Part shown: positions 12,001 through 21,000 of the stretch, in pieces
How positions within the stretch are numbered: the stretch's first letter is position 1
Layout of the letters: each line of letters starts with the position of its first letter
Assembly: GCA_034669905.1 (NCBI GenBank)
Contig: JAXMOL010000005.1
Location: 32,001 to 96,000, forward strand
Length of the DNA: 64,000 bases
Origin: Candidatus Hydrogenedentota bacterium
GTDB lineage: Bacteria; Hydrogenedentota; Hydrogenedentia; Hydrogenedentales; JAEUWI01
Direction of reading: 5' to 3'
Position numbers: made by a program

Positions 12001-15000
12001 CGGCATTCCGGGTACGGCCACGATGGCTTCCACGGGTTCCGATATTTCTTCCAGGGGATTGTGGATCGTGAGAAGCACATCCTGCTTCAGATCGCCGGCA
12101 AAGCCCGAGACGGTACCGGCATCTTCCAGTTTCGGCACATAGAGCAACCGTCTCCCGATGGGCCGCGCATGATGCAGTTCCACAGACAAGGCGAAGCCGC
12201 TGGTCTTCCGCAAACGGGGCCGATTGGCCATGGCACCCGCCGTCAGCTGGGGCGTGCTGAGTCCCCGGGCCTGGGCCATGGCGTTGTAGTCCGCCCCGGG
12301 CACCTCGAAAACCACCAGGTTGTTTCCGGCGCGCAAGCCGATGGCGAGAAATTCTTTCCCGACGGCCTCCAGTGGTCCGGGTTCGTATTGCGATGCGGGA
12401 AAGCCGTTGGCCCAGACACGGACGCCAAGGGGCGACTCAATATCCAGGAGAATCTGGGTGAGTATGGGCGAGTCGACGTAGAACGCCGCATAGGCCACGC
12501 CGGAAATATCGTCGGGGAAAAAGGGGGCCAAGTCCAGCTCGGGACCGGTCGTGCCCGCCTCTTGCCAGATAGCATCGTCCCCATTGCTCCGGGGAATCCG
12601 CATGAGGTGCCGGGGGCGAATGCGGGCGATGGGGGCGTTGGGCGCCATGAAATCCGTGTCGCTCAAGGCCGGGGCATCATCACGAATGGCCGCGAGAACC
12701 CCACCGGGCACGTCGGGTTCAAAGGGCCCACAGACAAGCCAGTGGGCAATGTAGCCCCGCTCCAGGATGGGCGCGAGGCCCTCGTATTGTTCCTGGGCCG
12801 GAGTAGAGATAGGGGCCAGTATGGTGGCGAGTAGCAACACGAGAAGCGCTATGCGATGGGAGCCTTTCACGTCAGCGGGACTCCGTCGAAATTTGCTCGG
12901 CAGGCGCCGTTTCGGCCTTTGCCGCCCCGGCCGGGTAATACGTATGCATTCCGGTGAGGGGGCTGTAGGCACGGTTCGCCTGAAACTGGAGCACGAACAG
13001 AATAAGACACAGGATGGTGGTGAGCGCCACGGTGGGCCTCCCCCACGCTTCAAAGCGCATAAGCCAGGCACTCAGGGCGGCCAGGGCCACCCCACACAGC
13101 GCCAGCGGCAGGAAAAGCTGTCCCGCATTCTCCAGGGTCACATAGTCTATCGGAAGGGCCCCCGGGTAGACGCGGATGAACAACACGGCCAACACGGCGA
13201 ATCGGAAGGGAGCCGATTTCACCTTAAACAGCGCCCAGCCCAGCAGCGCCATCACCCCAATACCCCATGCCCACCCCTGCCAGGCGTGGGCCTCAACGTG
13301 GGCCACCGTTTCCGGCAACAATCCGATGGGATAGAACACGAGCAAGAGGGGTCCCACGATGGCATCAAGTGTCGGCAGCTGGGCGTAGAGAATATCCAGA
13401 TGGAACCAGTTCGCCACCATGGTCACCCCGAGGAATGGCAGCAGGCGCAGCCAATTGCGTTCCTCACTATCCCCGACGAAGAGTTCCATCAGAATAAGGA
13501 CGCCCAAGAGCGCAGCATTGACAGCAAAAACACCCGTTGCAATGGCAAAAGTCAGTAGGGCTATCGCGAAGGGAGCCACACCGCCGTCTTGCCGCACCCG
13601 GGCATACATCAGCAGGGTCAGCAACGCCATAAAGGTGGCCAGCCCATAGTATACGCCGGTGAGACTGAAAAGCGTCTCCGTCTTGACGGGATGGGCCATG
13701 AGGAAGGTGCCTGCCAGCGAGCCCAACCACGGAGGACCACCCACGAGTCTTCGGGTAAGCAGAAACACCAGTGCCATACAGCCGAACAAGATGGGTAAGG
13801 CGAAACCTGCCACCTCGATAATCGGGCTGCGCGCAAATGCGTCGGACCACATGGCGAGCCATGGCCAGGCGGCCGGATAGTCAAAATCCCGAGTGGTCAT
13901 GCCCCCATTGGGAAGCATGATAAGACTCGATCCGTAGACCAGGATTAGATAGAAGGTCATGGTGACGAAAAAAAATCCGGCACCGGGCTTCTTGCGGGGG
14001 GGCTTGCTGTCGTTTGTATCATCCATGATGGGCCAAGTATAGCCCTTTTCCGGGGAAAAACTACAACCAACGCGCGCAACACGCCCTGAAAATGCTCCCC
14101 GACAAACAAAGGAGAAGAAGGCCCTGGCGAGAGGCAGAGAATCGTGTGCTGCCCATGAAGCGCGGTGGGCCAGCGCCCGTTGATTCCAGGCGGACCTTTC
14201 GCCTGGACACGGGGCATGACGCGCTCGAACCTGGGGAGAAAATGCACGAACCGGAGTACCGGATCGCGCGGCACAGCCGGAGAATCTACATGAGTCGTTG
14301 GGGAGAGAGGGGTTGCGGCCTCCCCGAAACAAAGCCCCCTCATCGGGCACATGACCAATGAGGGGGCGCGATTGCTATAGGGGCTGGTATTAACGCTGGG
14401 GGCGCCGTCCGAACGCAACCAGGGTCAACAGCGTAAGACTGAAGAGGAAGAACTCTTCTACTTTGTCGGCCAGGGTCTGTGCAACGCCCTGTTTCGAGAG
14501 CGCGCAACCCGGCGTCGTTACTTCGACGCGGGCCTCAAGCTCTGCCTCCGACAGAAAGCCATCGCTGTTGGTGTCCAGCGCATCAAACTGGGTGGTTGTC
14601 ACTGCGGACAAGGACGCCATGGCCTCTGCCAATGACAGCTGCCCATCATTATCCACGTCCGCAACAGCGAACAGGTTCAAGAGCGCTTCGGCGGCGGCAT
14701 CCAGCGTCACTTCGCCTTCGCCTTCGCCTTCGCCTTCGCCTTCTCCTTCTCCTTCACCTTCACCTTCACCTTCACCTTCTTCTTCTCCTTCTCCTTCTCC
14801 TTCTCCTTCTCCTTCTCCTTCACCGCCGGGCGCACCATCGAAATAGACGCGATAGATATTCCCGTCGATGGTCGAATTGGCCGCAAAGTCTCCAACGCGA
14901 ATATAGACGTCCGACGTGAAAGCGTTTACAAAAGCCGTGTAATAAACACCGGTGGTGTCGGCGGGGTGCAAGGTTTCATACAACTCAAAGTTACCCACTT

Positions 15001-18000: not shown

Positions 18001-21000
18001 TTCAGATCGAGCATATGAAGTTCACTGGCTTCGCCAAAGCTGCCCACGTCGAGCAATAGAATGGCTCCCCCCATATAGGCCCCGGTAAAGTGACTGATGT
18101 TGGCAATCAAGGTCTCTTCGGTGTAGTCCGCAAAATTGTCCGTATCAATTTCATAGAGATTCCCACCAAACCCGGCGCCAAGCATGGCGTGCTTGTTATC
18201 AGGGGACATGGCAATAAAGGCGGGATCACCAATATAGCCGGTGGCCACCATCTCAAAGCTTCCTTTTTGATCCTGAATTTCGCGGTAAATGCTCTCACCG
18301 TCCCATACCAGCAACTGTCCGCCGGGCAGCGCCGTGCCCACCACACCGAAGGCGTTTTCTGCCGCAGCCGGGAATCCCGTGATCGGGGTGTATTCCGCGG
18401 AGTAAATGAGCGTTTCTCCTTCGCCTTCGCCTTCTCCCTCACCTTCTCCCTCTGCGCCGGACTCCTGAACCACGCGGTACACGTCCCCATTGATAGCGGA
18501 GCCCGCCGCGAAGTCGCCCACGCGAATATTGGTCGTATCGGTCGTCTCGTTGTAGATGACGGTGTAGTAGAGTCCCGTACCGCTCGCCGGTTGCAAGGTT
18601 TCTACCAGGGGCAGGGAGTCGACCCCGTCCCGGCGATTGGTGGTCCGGAGCTTGGAGTTGCTGTAATCGAATACCTTCACGGCGTCCGAACCCGGGTTAA
18701 GAAATTGGAGATCGGCATTCACACCGGCGATTCCACCGGTCAGCAGGGACTCATCGGTCATCACTTCTGCCGCCGATTCCCACGCGAGGGGCGTCGACGT
18801 CTCGTAGGCATTCAGGAGGGCCTCCAGCTCGATGGCCCGGAGCTCGCCCGTGTTTCCGTCCATGGCAAAGAGGAATTCCGGCGAATCAAAAAGGAGCGAC
18901 AGCGTGGAAGAATAACTACCGGCGGGCTTTTCAAGCACCGTCACTTTCGCAGCGGGAGCCGGCTTCTTCAAAACGGTCACCGGAAGAGACTTCGTTTGCG
19001 CCAGGTCGAATATCACCAGTTCGCTGGGTTCACCGAAGACACCGGCGTCCAGGAGGACGAGGTCGTTATTCAGGTAGAGCCCATCAAAGTGGCTCATGGT
19101 GGCCACCAGGGCAGAGGCCTCATAGTCTGCCGGGGTGTGAATATCGAAGAGATAGAGATTGCCGCTGAATCCTGCGCCCAACAAGGCAAAGCGACCGCCG
19201 GGAGCAATGGCCATGAAGGCGGGATCGCCCACATAACCGGTAGCAATCGCGGTAAAACTATCTTCGTCTACACCCGACTGAAGGTAAAGGGTGTTGCCGT
19301 TCCAGACGAGCAGGCGCCCATCGGGCAGCCCTTCGCCCACCACGCCGAAGGCATTGGAGTCGGCCTGGGGAAAGTTCTCATACTTCAGGAACTCCGCGGC
19401 CGATAAGGTGGCGCAAAGGACCAGGAAAAGTCCGGTAACGATGCAACGCGTGCGCAGAAATGGGTACAGCATAATTCTCAACTCCGTTCGTACTATCTTC
19501 GAACATCGTCCAGCCCGATAGCTCTCGAGCCTTGGATTCCCCGGGGATAACACCGATCGATTGGGTACATCACACCTGTACCCGTGGTGTGGGAGTGTAA
19601 AAAGGAGCAGGTTGCTCTAGGGTGCCGCCTGTCCCGCAACGATTTTCCCGCGAATCATTGCAAAACATGCCTTGCAGGACAGATATTCTGGCTTCCGGAT
19701 CGGCCTACTGACCGCGCCTTCCCTTCCCTGGGGGAAAGTGGCTCTTGCGGTGTTCGTCCCCGGTTACAGCAGCGCGACTGCGACGGATTTGCACCGTCTT
19801 CCCTGTATCTGCGAGGTAAAACCAGCCCAAGCTGGTGTGTTCCGAGAAGTATACCTAGGCCCTTTCCGGTGAATCAACCGACGATCGGGCAGGAAACCCG
19901 GGGATTACACGACCGGTCTAATAGACTTCATCGACCGATCCGAAGGCCATTTACCCAAGAAGGAACCCCTACCCATGCGAACTCTTGCCATCGCCGCCCT
20001 GCTGGCGGCGGGACTTTCCCCCAACGCTGCGCTGGCCGAGCCGACCTTTGGCGAGCGCCTGGGGTGGAAGGCCGACGACCGAATTCTCATCCTCCACAAC
20101 GATGACGTCGGCATGTCGCACGAAAGCAATCTCGGCACGATCGAAGGCTTCGAAGGCGGCCTCATGAACTCGAGTAGTACGATGATGCCCTGCTCCTGGG
20201 TCTTGGAATGGCGCGACTACCTGTTGGAACACCCCGAGATCGACAACGGACTTCACCTGACCCTTACGTCGGAGTGGAAACACTACCGATGGCGCCCGGT
20301 GGCGGGCGCGTCGGTCGTCCCCGGTCTGGTAGATGAAGAAGGCTACATGCACCGCCGCGTGATGCAGACCATCACGAACGCCACGGCGGACGAAGTGGAG
20401 ACCGAGATTCGCGCCCAGATCGCCCTTGCGGAAAAGATGGGCCTGCCCATCACCCACCTGGATTCCCACATGGGCACGTTGTTTTATTCCAAGCCCTTCT
20501 TCGAACGCTACATCAAGGTGGGCATCGAAAAGCAGATTCCCATCATGCTGCCCAGCGGACGGGGCGAGGCCAAGACCGACGCCGAAAAAATGTTGCAGCC
20601 CCAGATCCGGGCGGCCGCCAAAGCGGTGTGGGATGGCGGTCTTCCGGTACTCGACTATCTTTTTACTTCCACCGCCGACACAGGTGATGCAAAAGAGATG
20701 ACCGAGGCACTGAAACAGCGAATTCGCGAGTTGGAACCGGGCATCACCCAGATTATCCTTCACGGAACGCGCCCCGGCTGTAACTTTCATGCCATCTCTG
20801 GCTCGGGGAAAAAGCGGAATGCCGAACTGGAAATGGTACTGAGCGAGGAAGTGAAGCAGCTTATTAAAGACGAAGGCATCATCATGACCACCTACCGCGA
20901 GCTCATGGAACGGCGTCAAGCGGTTAAGTAGGCCCCACACCAACATCACAGCATCAGGAACGCCCCATAAGCCTGACACGGCCTATGGGGCGTTTGTTTT

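Follow-up and report, generated by a model that had tools for sequence, protein, structure and literature searches.

The core of the vitamin B12 regulon in this Candidatus Hydrogenedentota bacterium appears to be a conserved H-X9-DG prepilin, which is the best candidate for the step that takes B12 across the outer membrane. The two beta-propeller proteins encoded behind a cobalamin riboswitch in the window (the whole stretch of 64,000 nucleotides that was analysed) are, as far as sequence comparison can tell, an accessory and swappable part of that regulon and not its core. A preliminary description of this DNA had made the propeller a key part of a B12 system working without TonB; the riboswitch link and the missing receptor stand, but the conserved prepilin had been overlooked. 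In the mechanism proposed here, the two exported, C-terminally anchored propeller proteins likely capture vitamin B12, and together with BtuH-domain proteins they would deliver the vitamin to an H-X9-DG pilin dedicated to this task. This pilin is predicted to carry B12 across the outer membrane by means of a retractile pilus, through a secretin, replacing BtuB and TonB, and uptake by a BtuF-like ABC transporter (C16:120117-122825) would be the last step. The proposal builds on the riboswitch, gene order, domain families and co-occurrence, on the lack of any TonB-system match in the genome under study, and on its secretins, PilT-family ATPases, exosortases and BtuF-like ABC system; repression by B12, display at the cell surface, binding of the vitamin by propeller and pilin, its transfer, the passage through the secretin and the final uptake are the steps that we infer. 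We give the whole reading, riboswitch-controlled capture by propeller and BtuH-type proteins with pilus import in place of BtuB and TonB, an even chance of being right, and pilus-driven passage through the secretin, taken by itself, an even chance at best.

In the window, the aptamer lies on the minus strand at 19661..19840, where the full-length RF00174 model scores 88.2 bits, over the gathering cut-off of 31.5, and it stands 5' of its gene as a cobalamin riboswitch requires; B12 would presumably repress the operon. Downstream on the same strand follow two tandem double-propeller genes, as had been claimed: protein 1 (16959..19472, minus strand, 837 aa, ATG start) and its tandem paralogue, protein 2 (14390..16903, minus strand, 837 aa), which shares its architecture. 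The relative G065 has a stop eight codons before the equivalent of the ATG at the 19472 side. Each protein has a signal-peptide-like N-terminus followed by two copies of one domain of about 310 aa, Gly-Glu repeat linkers, an EF-hand-like pair (Pfam EF-hand_5 is over its cut-off in protein 2), a cysteine, a hydrophobic C-terminal helix and a basic tail, and a position at the cell surface would suit these proteins. The first domain of protein 1 (18462..19397, minus strand; P0003) was used for modelling. The second (17460..18407, minus strand), a profile match, is 46% identical to it, and the domains of protein 2 (about 15887-16828 and 14843-15778, minus strand) are 65% and 50% identical.

The domain is a new family without a database name, at least by sequence, and had rightly been called undescribed: it matches no Pfam or NCBIfam family and no B12-binding protein, and its profile finds 0 PDB sequences at E <= 10. 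The strand order in the AlphaFold2 model of P0003 (pLDDT 87.3, pTM 0.87) gives six blades, and the closest structural matches (Z 20.9-17) come from families that we take to be six-bladed, led by the enzyme EupfF (Z 20.9, rmsd 3.2, 270 aligned) and 2p4o, of the SMP-30/gluconolactonase type (Z 20.4, rmsd 3.3, 253 aligned). These matches are generic, at 6-14% identity with no outlier, the nearest being enzymes and scaffolds, and P0003 has no Pfam match to the SMP-30/gluconolactonase family at E <= 0.01. A search of the ESM Atlas returned weak, unnamed look-alikes and, weakly, YncE-like clusters (0.89-0.90); TrAA12 and serine-rich matches on the propeller proteins were rejected as caused by the Gly-Glu repeats. 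Ten aromatic and acidic residues (F17, D58, F77, H103, F104, D117, Y162, S163, D180 and E185 in P0003 numbering) are identical in 4/4 domains of this genome and lost in one double paralogue that lacks a riboswitch, a signal that is not clean, as most of them persist in one switch-less copy but not in several distant switch-linked ones. Each of the four domains is acidic (36-42 D+E vs 15-16 K+R). That the domain binds a corrinoid is probable, and the propeller proteins may well serve in cobalamin capture.

An acidic beta-propeller that is exported, stands under riboswitch control and is encoded together with BtuH-type genes recalls BtuG of Bacteroides thetaiotaomicron, which the accessible parts of two papers describe as a surface B12-binding propeller (PMC10404256, PMC13616437) whose acidic face is able to bind B12 (PMC10404256). 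The propeller nevertheless appears not to be BtuG (DUF5074/YncE), given six predicted blades and no sequence match; BtuG is not among the fold matches listed either, which leaves a distant structural kinship conceivable. BtuG has seven blades, an N-terminal lipid anchor and a BtuB partner, whereas the proteins described here have a C-terminal helix and no BtuB to cap; unlike BtuG, they are often duplicated, the domain reaching four copies.

The propeller domain occurs in 82/135 Hydrogenedentota genomes, and a cobalamin riboswitch (Rfam) lies upstream of the gene in 27/29 loci, a larger sample that extends the phylum-wide link reported earlier; one of the two misses is at a contig end and the other is a degenerate paralogue. 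In an overlapping set of GTDB loci the proportion is 44/48, the four misses being two at contig ends and two in one genome where the switch heads an alternative family. The genomes are related and the counts are therefore not independent, and 73/223 riboswitch matches fall outside the listed ones that were assigned to genes. The propeller is judged accessory because 21 genomes with the B12-linked pilin have neither a propeller nor a BtuH-type gene, and because in family f3 another anchored protein takes its place (22/23 genomes; propeller, 0/23). This f3-type family was rejected as a propeller homologue (hhalign 0.2%), although some distant matches hit both profiles weakly.

The pilin itself is far more constant, with an orthologue in 119/135 genomes and in 82/86 of those of high quality, nearly always as a single copy. 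The copy in the genome under study, on C97, scores over threshold for TIGR02532 (21.5 > 16.3) and TIGR04294 (24.9 > 19), retains the prepilin cleavage motif with Glu5, and has a C-terminal H-X9-DG; H185, H188, D198 and G199 are invariant in 46 sequences. It belongs with the H-X9-DG or DUF1559 prepilins (TIGR04294, TIGR02532, PF07596), a family that to our knowledge has no described function. Most of the 46 H-X9-DG prepilins in this genome stand alone with no adjoining transport gene, and the B12-pilin profile separates the C97 pilin (458 bits) from 65 paralogues (<= 92); against the PDB it found no sequence. The propeller gene lies directly 5' of a BtuH-type gene in 31 genomes, the pilin follows BtuH in 72, and 25 hold riboswitch, propeller, BtuH and pilin as a single run; in five GTDB loci a BtuH-type domain and the pilin share one reading frame. 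Among the riboswitch matches listed, at least 67/124 pilin matches have a switch within 8 kb upstream, and at least 20 stand directly behind one, mostly as a lone gene. The pairing of switch and pilin recurs in metagenome loci without a taxon, in 33/35 with at least 2.6 kb upstream (own profile) and in 11/14 chosen by hand (Rfam). In the genome under study, the propellers and the B12-linked pilin lie in separate operons. That this pilin serves B12 acquisition is, in our view, highly probable.

Four cobalamin riboswitches were found in this genome, on C5 (the propellers), C18, C13 and C62, the last of which heads nrdA/nrdB of a class I ribonucleotide reductase. The first three had been said to head anchored proteins, which holds for C5 and C13; the C18 gene runs off the contig end and its anchor is consequently not visible there. 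The C97 half of the C18 protein, on an inferred C18-C97 join, contains a PKD domain. The reported homology of the C18 protein to 7biz and 8blw was recovered (7biz_A, E 1.7e-8; 8blw_B, E 1.3e-5), and the family profile matches both (8blw_B, 3e-20; 7biz_A, 1.6e-14) over both halves of the ~270-aa B12-binding domain. These entries are B12 proteins of the BtuH/BtuG type, as had been supposed: in the part of the source available, 7BIZ is BtuH2 with B12 and 8BLW is BtuB1G1 (PMC10404256). B12-contact residues of BtuH2, as given in an available excerpt, are Gln333, Asn399, Phe401, His476, Tyr510, Trp511, Trp577 and Leu578 (PMC8941943). With the numbering offset derived from the alignment, Asn399 and Leu578 are retained in the C18 protein and Phe401 in the family profile, Trp577 is replaced, Tyr510/Trp511 have no clear counterpart, and the remaining contacts are unaligned. 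The C18 protein is a homologue of BtuH2 and of the H-domain of BtuG1 (PDB 7BIZ, 8BLW); the PKD domain of its presumed C97 half and its occurrence in organisms unable to build the corrin ring are further points in common. The BtuH-type proteins here have a C-terminal anchor, and a prepilin, either as the next gene or as a fusion, takes the position of btuB, with which more than 80% of gut btuH genes lie according to the text seen (PMC8941943). The C13 protein, previously listed apart from the BtuH-type protein, is a PEP-CTERM protein with a riboswitch, as stated, and the switch precedes 4/4 of its homologues, one of them cut off; yet it is itself probably BtuH-like, though more distant than the C18 protein (hhalign to the C18 family 96.9%, E 1.5e-10, 124 columns; no direct PDB match).

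Active import of B12 or haem across an outer membrane is held to need TonB-dependent receptors. The genome under study (G000; 95.7% complete, 102 contigs) nevertheless gives 0 matches to PF00593, PF07715 and PF03544 (barrel, plug and TonB C-terminal domain), which agrees with the earlier account, as does the presence of receptors in some relatives: PF00593 occurs in 43/135 phylum genomes (39 over cut-off), including 4/8 of the same genus. The closed same-genus genome G068 has no PF00593, and 84/119 pilin genomes lack an over-cut-off TonB receptor. Most receptors lie in receptor-YfiR-like-kinase clusters, and 0/15 receptor loci carry a cobalamin riboswitch. The sole riboswitch with a receptor within 12 kb, in G006, was set aside, since it heads BtuH-pilin and the receptor is part of a YfiR-like/kinase cluster of its own. 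The lone BtuB-like receptor seen follows cobU-cobT in G038, a genome without a pilin, propeller or BtuH match. B12 must be imported because CbiC is missing from 134/135 genomes, the single match being marginal; the genome under study encodes MetH-like and IcmF enzymes and has no CobU/CobT match. As BamA is present, an outer membrane must be crossed. The genome holds seven secretins over cut-off, 10 PilT-family ATPases, three exosortase matches and the BtuF-like ABC locus, which has no riboswitch; a further match to the secretin profile, on C97 (E 7e-4), contains two stops and was not counted.

An operon of haem type at C1:158681-163817, comprising pilin, binding protein, FecCD permease, ATPase and HemS, appears from its sequence to be an independent parallel. 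Its pilin differs from the B12-linked one and occupies the slot normally held by a TonB receptor; a pilin stands there in 7/7 relatives' loci complete upstream, with no TonB receptor match in any of the seven. Two H-X9-DG orthologue groups are hence each tied to one nutrient, by the B12 switch and by the HemS-ABC operon, and B12 and haem become two concrete candidate ligands for H-X9-DG/DUF1559 pilins. Competence pili, which take up DNA, also connect pilus machinery with the acquisition of substrates across the outer membrane, as does, in the portion of the paper available, the type IV-like pilus locus MUL2 of Akkermansia (PMC13174399). Those systems handle polymers or attachment, whereas here a small cofactor would be carried, each cargo having a pilin type of its own. 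Tentatively, and with somewhat less than an even chance, Hydrogenedentota and probably other H-X9-DG-rich phyla may use a library of pilins, each specific for its cargo, where other bacteria have TonB-dependent receptors: one would be loaded with B12 by stalked surface catchers such as the six-bladed propellers and another with haem, and PilT-driven retraction would pull the cargo through a secretin to periplasmic ABC systems. A pilin-based route, if true, would be a second general solution to such import and a role for a family without one. Literature searches, mostly of open-access text without supplements, returned nothing that looked relevant among the papers listed on B12 uptake in Hydrogenedentota; on prepilin, DUF1559, H-X9-DG or PEP-CTERM with cobalamin riboswitches; or on such riboswitches in planctomycetes without BtuB, so that a prior mention of any of these is possible.

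The pilin, propeller and BtuH-type proteins could instead remain anchored in the inner membrane, where they would concentrate periplasmic B12 for an ABC transporter, B12 entering by an unregulated outer-membrane channel. The C-terminal helices and the N-terminal helix of the pilin are inner-membrane anchors until processed, the Pfam name of DUF1559 is 'SBP_bac_10', the fused BtuH-pilin frames join the two parts in one protein, and the haem pilin gene directly precedes that of a periplasmic binding protein. That same neighbour also argues the other way, because a second periplasmic binder would be redundant there, and it is the outer-membrane slot that is empty. B12 exceeds the size that general porins admit, the pilin keeps its cleavage motif and Glu5, and the long Gly-Glu stalks and exosortase-type tails suit display away from the membrane; we consider such a relay unlikely. 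Less probable still is a propeller that acts as a lactonase-like enzyme freeing or remodelling corrinoids, or as an adhesin to B12 producers, with capture left to the pilin and BtuH-type proteins. The top structural matches, EupfF and SMP-30/gluconolactonase proteins, are six-bladed enzymes, H103, D117, D180 and E185 are conserved, and the 21 pilin genomes noted above dispense with the propeller; the fold matches are generic, however, and binding by avidity would suit a stalked domain that is duplicated, up to fourfold, and that a different anchored family can replace. In the text available, BtuG shows that an acidic propeller face is able to bind B12 (PMC10404256).

A BtuB-like receptor that is too divergent to match, or lies in the unassembled 4%, would make the propeller a BtuG-like lid. 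The draft state of the genome and the PF00593 matches in half of the same-genus genomes leave some room for it, but we think it very improbable: barrel, plug and TonB C-terminal matches are all missing here, closed G068 has no PF00593, receptor loci carry no riboswitches, and at the syntenic site on C7, where the DNA is contiguous, the receptor cluster that the closest relative, G065, has is missing. Even if only capture holds in the reading preferred here, the propeller would add a new family of B12 binders that converged with BtuG.

Further elements flank the propeller genes on the minus strand. Directly 5' of the aptamer lies a candidate sigma-70-type promoter, TTGATT-18-TATACT (19848..19877), of which only the position is suggestive, with one promoter-type site found vs 2.1 expected in shuffles. 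A short hairpin with a U run 3' of the aptamer (19596..19617) stays a weak candidate for a regulated terminator, terminator-like sites in the region being at chance level (6 vs 5.8). Between the two genes, a hairpin without a U run (16915..16940; z = -5.0 for 16890-16965) is possibly an mRNA stability or processing element, and the two-gene operon ends in an intrinsic terminator-like hairpin of 13 pairs (14334..14367; z = -5.4).

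A cobalamin riboswitch (window 19661-19840, minus strand, 88.2 bits) heads two ORFs on contig C5, at 16959-19472 and 14390-16903 on the same strand, as the preliminary description had it. Both encode 837-aa proteins that start with a signal-like N-terminus and carry a domain of ~310 aa (the propeller) twice, along with Gly-Glu linkers, an EF-hand-like pair and then a C-terminal helix with a basic tail, and the gene pair ends in a 13-pair hairpin with a U run (z -5.4). The propeller domain is present in 82 of 135 phylum genomes, and a representative search with it returned 259 proteins at E <= 1e-3 and 104 at 1e-10. 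Its proposed link to riboswitches across the phylum holds: Rfam places a switch 5' of the propeller gene in 27/29 loci, and our own profile, built from the Rfam-found switches, places one 150-405 nt 5' in 44/48 GTDB loci, a set overlapping the first. Tandem riboswitch pairs precede propeller or pilin genes in G091 (locus L022), G103, G104 and G105; the pilin downstream of the G103 pair belongs to a different subfamily. Around the C5 operon, window 21019-26424 carries two alpha-L-rhamnosidase-like genes, one with a fused YkuD L,D-transpeptidase domain, and window 7150-14023 a membrane protein, a 1670-aa GH38-like protein and a CAAX-protease-like gene, which several relatives keep in synteny with the propeller locus.

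The family was also correctly called undescribed, as Pfam, NCBIfam and PDB sequence searches gave no match. The confident domain model (pLDDT 87.3) has six predicted blades by strand order. Foldseek returned generic propellers only, and a wide fold search listed enzymes and scaffolds with six-bladed folds (Z 17-21, 6-14% identity), none standing out. The domain is not BtuG, because BtuG, in the excerpted text of PMC10404256, is seven-bladed and lipid-anchored, versus six predicted blades and a C-terminal helix here. Ten aromatic, acidic or polar positions, which from their place in the modelled blades would share one face, do not vary among the four domains of G000, the source genome. One double paralogue that lacks a switch has lost them, another switch-less copy retains most of them, and distant switch-linked copies vary.

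The source genome (G000) has four cobalamin riboswitches, at C5, C18, C13 and C62. The C62 switch lies 5' of class I nrdAB (C62:8264-12712); blastp with this NrdA found no NrdJ-like paralogue in G000. The C18 protein, described as carrying a Bacteroides-type B12-binding domain, is by sequence a BtuH homologue, matching 7BIZ and 8BLW, which the accessible part of PMC10404256 identifies as BtuH2-B12 and BtuB1G1. Some of the B12 contacts that the available portion of PMC8941943 lists for BtuH2 are kept, and Trp577 is replaced. BtuH-type genes occur in 94/135 genomes. The C13 PEP-CTERM protein appears to be a distant member of this group (hhalign 96.9%); homologues occur in 5/135 genomes, with a switch 5' of the gene in 4/4 relatives, as anticipated. 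One metagenome protein (L259:2665-4857) is an apparent join of DUF4465-like repeats, assigned by eye, and a C13-type domain, its gene lying downstream of a cobalamin switch and 5' of a pilin gene. The section consulted of PMC13398666 gives TonB and ABC genes as DUF4465 neighbours and leaves pilins unmentioned.

Neighbour clustering of the 48 loci showed the propeller gene followed by a BtuH-type gene, and usually then by an H-X9-DG prepilin, in 16, the latter two being fused in frame in five. The G000 orthologue of this pilin is C97:5335-6267 (458 bits, versus at most 92 for 65 paralogues); contig C97 starts immediately 5' of it with a Gly-Glu repeat, a PKD domain and an anchor. The C18 gene is cut by the end of its contig inside a Gly-Glu repeat, and we infer that it continues onto C97, BtuH-type gene then pilin; this can only be inferred because more than 20 contig ends in G000 lie in such repeats, and it is supported by G068, a closed genome of the same genus, in which the switch is followed by the BtuH-type gene and the pilin and then by the downstream genes found on C97. 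The pilin body is found in 119/135 genomes (82/86 high-quality ones), a spread exceeding those of the propeller and BtuH-type gene; it accompanies the propeller in 77 of 82 genomes and occurs without either partner in 21. Propeller-BtuH adjacency is seen in 31 genomes and the full propeller-BtuH-pilin run in 25. Among the 150 listed of 223 switches, 108 precede units made up of propeller, BtuH or pilin genes; 70 of the units contain the pilin, and 20 switches lie directly 5' of it. Among 80 taxonomically unassigned metagenome loci, our own profile pairs switch and pilin in 33 of the 35 with enough upstream DNA, and Rfam does so in 11 of 14 hand-picked loci. BtuH-like genes often stand between the two, and the nearest Atlas clusters are mostly Verrucomicrobiota. 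The switch-propeller-BtuH-pilin system is real, conserved and undescribed; the literature searched yielded no paper linking B12 to pilins.

G000 needs B12, judging by sequence matches to IcmF (above cut-off) and MetH (MetH-like, below it); CbiC matches, marginally, in 1/135 genomes. The genome was said to lack a TonB receptor, and searches for barrel, plug and TonB domain were all empty, with BamA present. A hidden BtuB in G000 is very improbable. The one BtuB-like gene, downstream of cobU-cobT (339 bits, below the 600 cut-off), belongs to an 84% complete genome without pilin, propeller or BtuH match. TonB receptors occur in 43/135 genomes; 20 receptor loci were fetched, and none of the 15 that were scanned has a cobalamin switch. 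Most receptors cluster with genes for a YfiR-like protein and a sensor kinase (L159-L178), possibly serving signalling rather than transport, and the nearest relative's cluster is missing from contiguous G000 DNA.

Most likely, the observed gene arrangement serves a capture-and-pilus import route for B12. Low B12 would release the switches, Gly-Glu stalks would display propellers and BtuH-type proteins that capture corrinoids, a dedicated pilin in a retractile pilus would take the cargo through a secretin, and a BtuF-like ABC system on C16, whose locus has no cobalamin switch, would complete uptake. G000 has 46 H-X9-DG prepilins, mostly solitary, 7 secretins, 10 PilT-family and 8 PilB/GspE-like ATPases, one type II secretion cluster and three exosortase matches. 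A purely periplasmic relay instead seems unlikely, roughly one chance in a few. Less probable still is a non-binding role for the propeller. The proposed pilus route would work like the Bacteroides BtuJ/BtuH/BtuG relay, as far as outlined in the accessible text of PMC13616437, except that its BtuB end is missing here; for the pilus, Akkermansia MUL2 (PMC13174399, in excerpt) is the closest precedent found.

A parallel operon on C1 (C1:156147-163817, L181) encodes an anchored SBBP-repeat protein and a run of H-X9-DG pilin, different from the B12-linked one, periplasmic binding protein, FecCD permease, ATPase and HemS, with no TonB receptor. In described haem operons the pilin's slot holds the TonB receptor. 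From the presence of HemS, the cargo would be haem. HemS occurs in 14/135 genomes; among 14 relatives' loci, seven have the same five-gene run, two reach a contig end before the pilin position, and five have another HemS type with neither ABC genes nor pilin. A TonB receptor matched in none of the 14.

In one family of phylum genomes (f3) the propeller is found in 0/23, and a different switch-headed anchored family in 22/23. In the two most distant genomes (L139, L140) the switch comes with a related pilin and with a third type of anchored protein, ~450 aa long, whose Pfam matches are limited to TSP3 repeats. The capture parts are therefore swappable and the pilin constant. The f3 anchored family (L145-L148, L151, L154, L158; L282:571-3939) has an SFDWD motif and is probably a propeller, though with no detectable homology to the C5 domain; in G034, an f3-type member is fused C-terminally to a C13-type BtuH-like domain.
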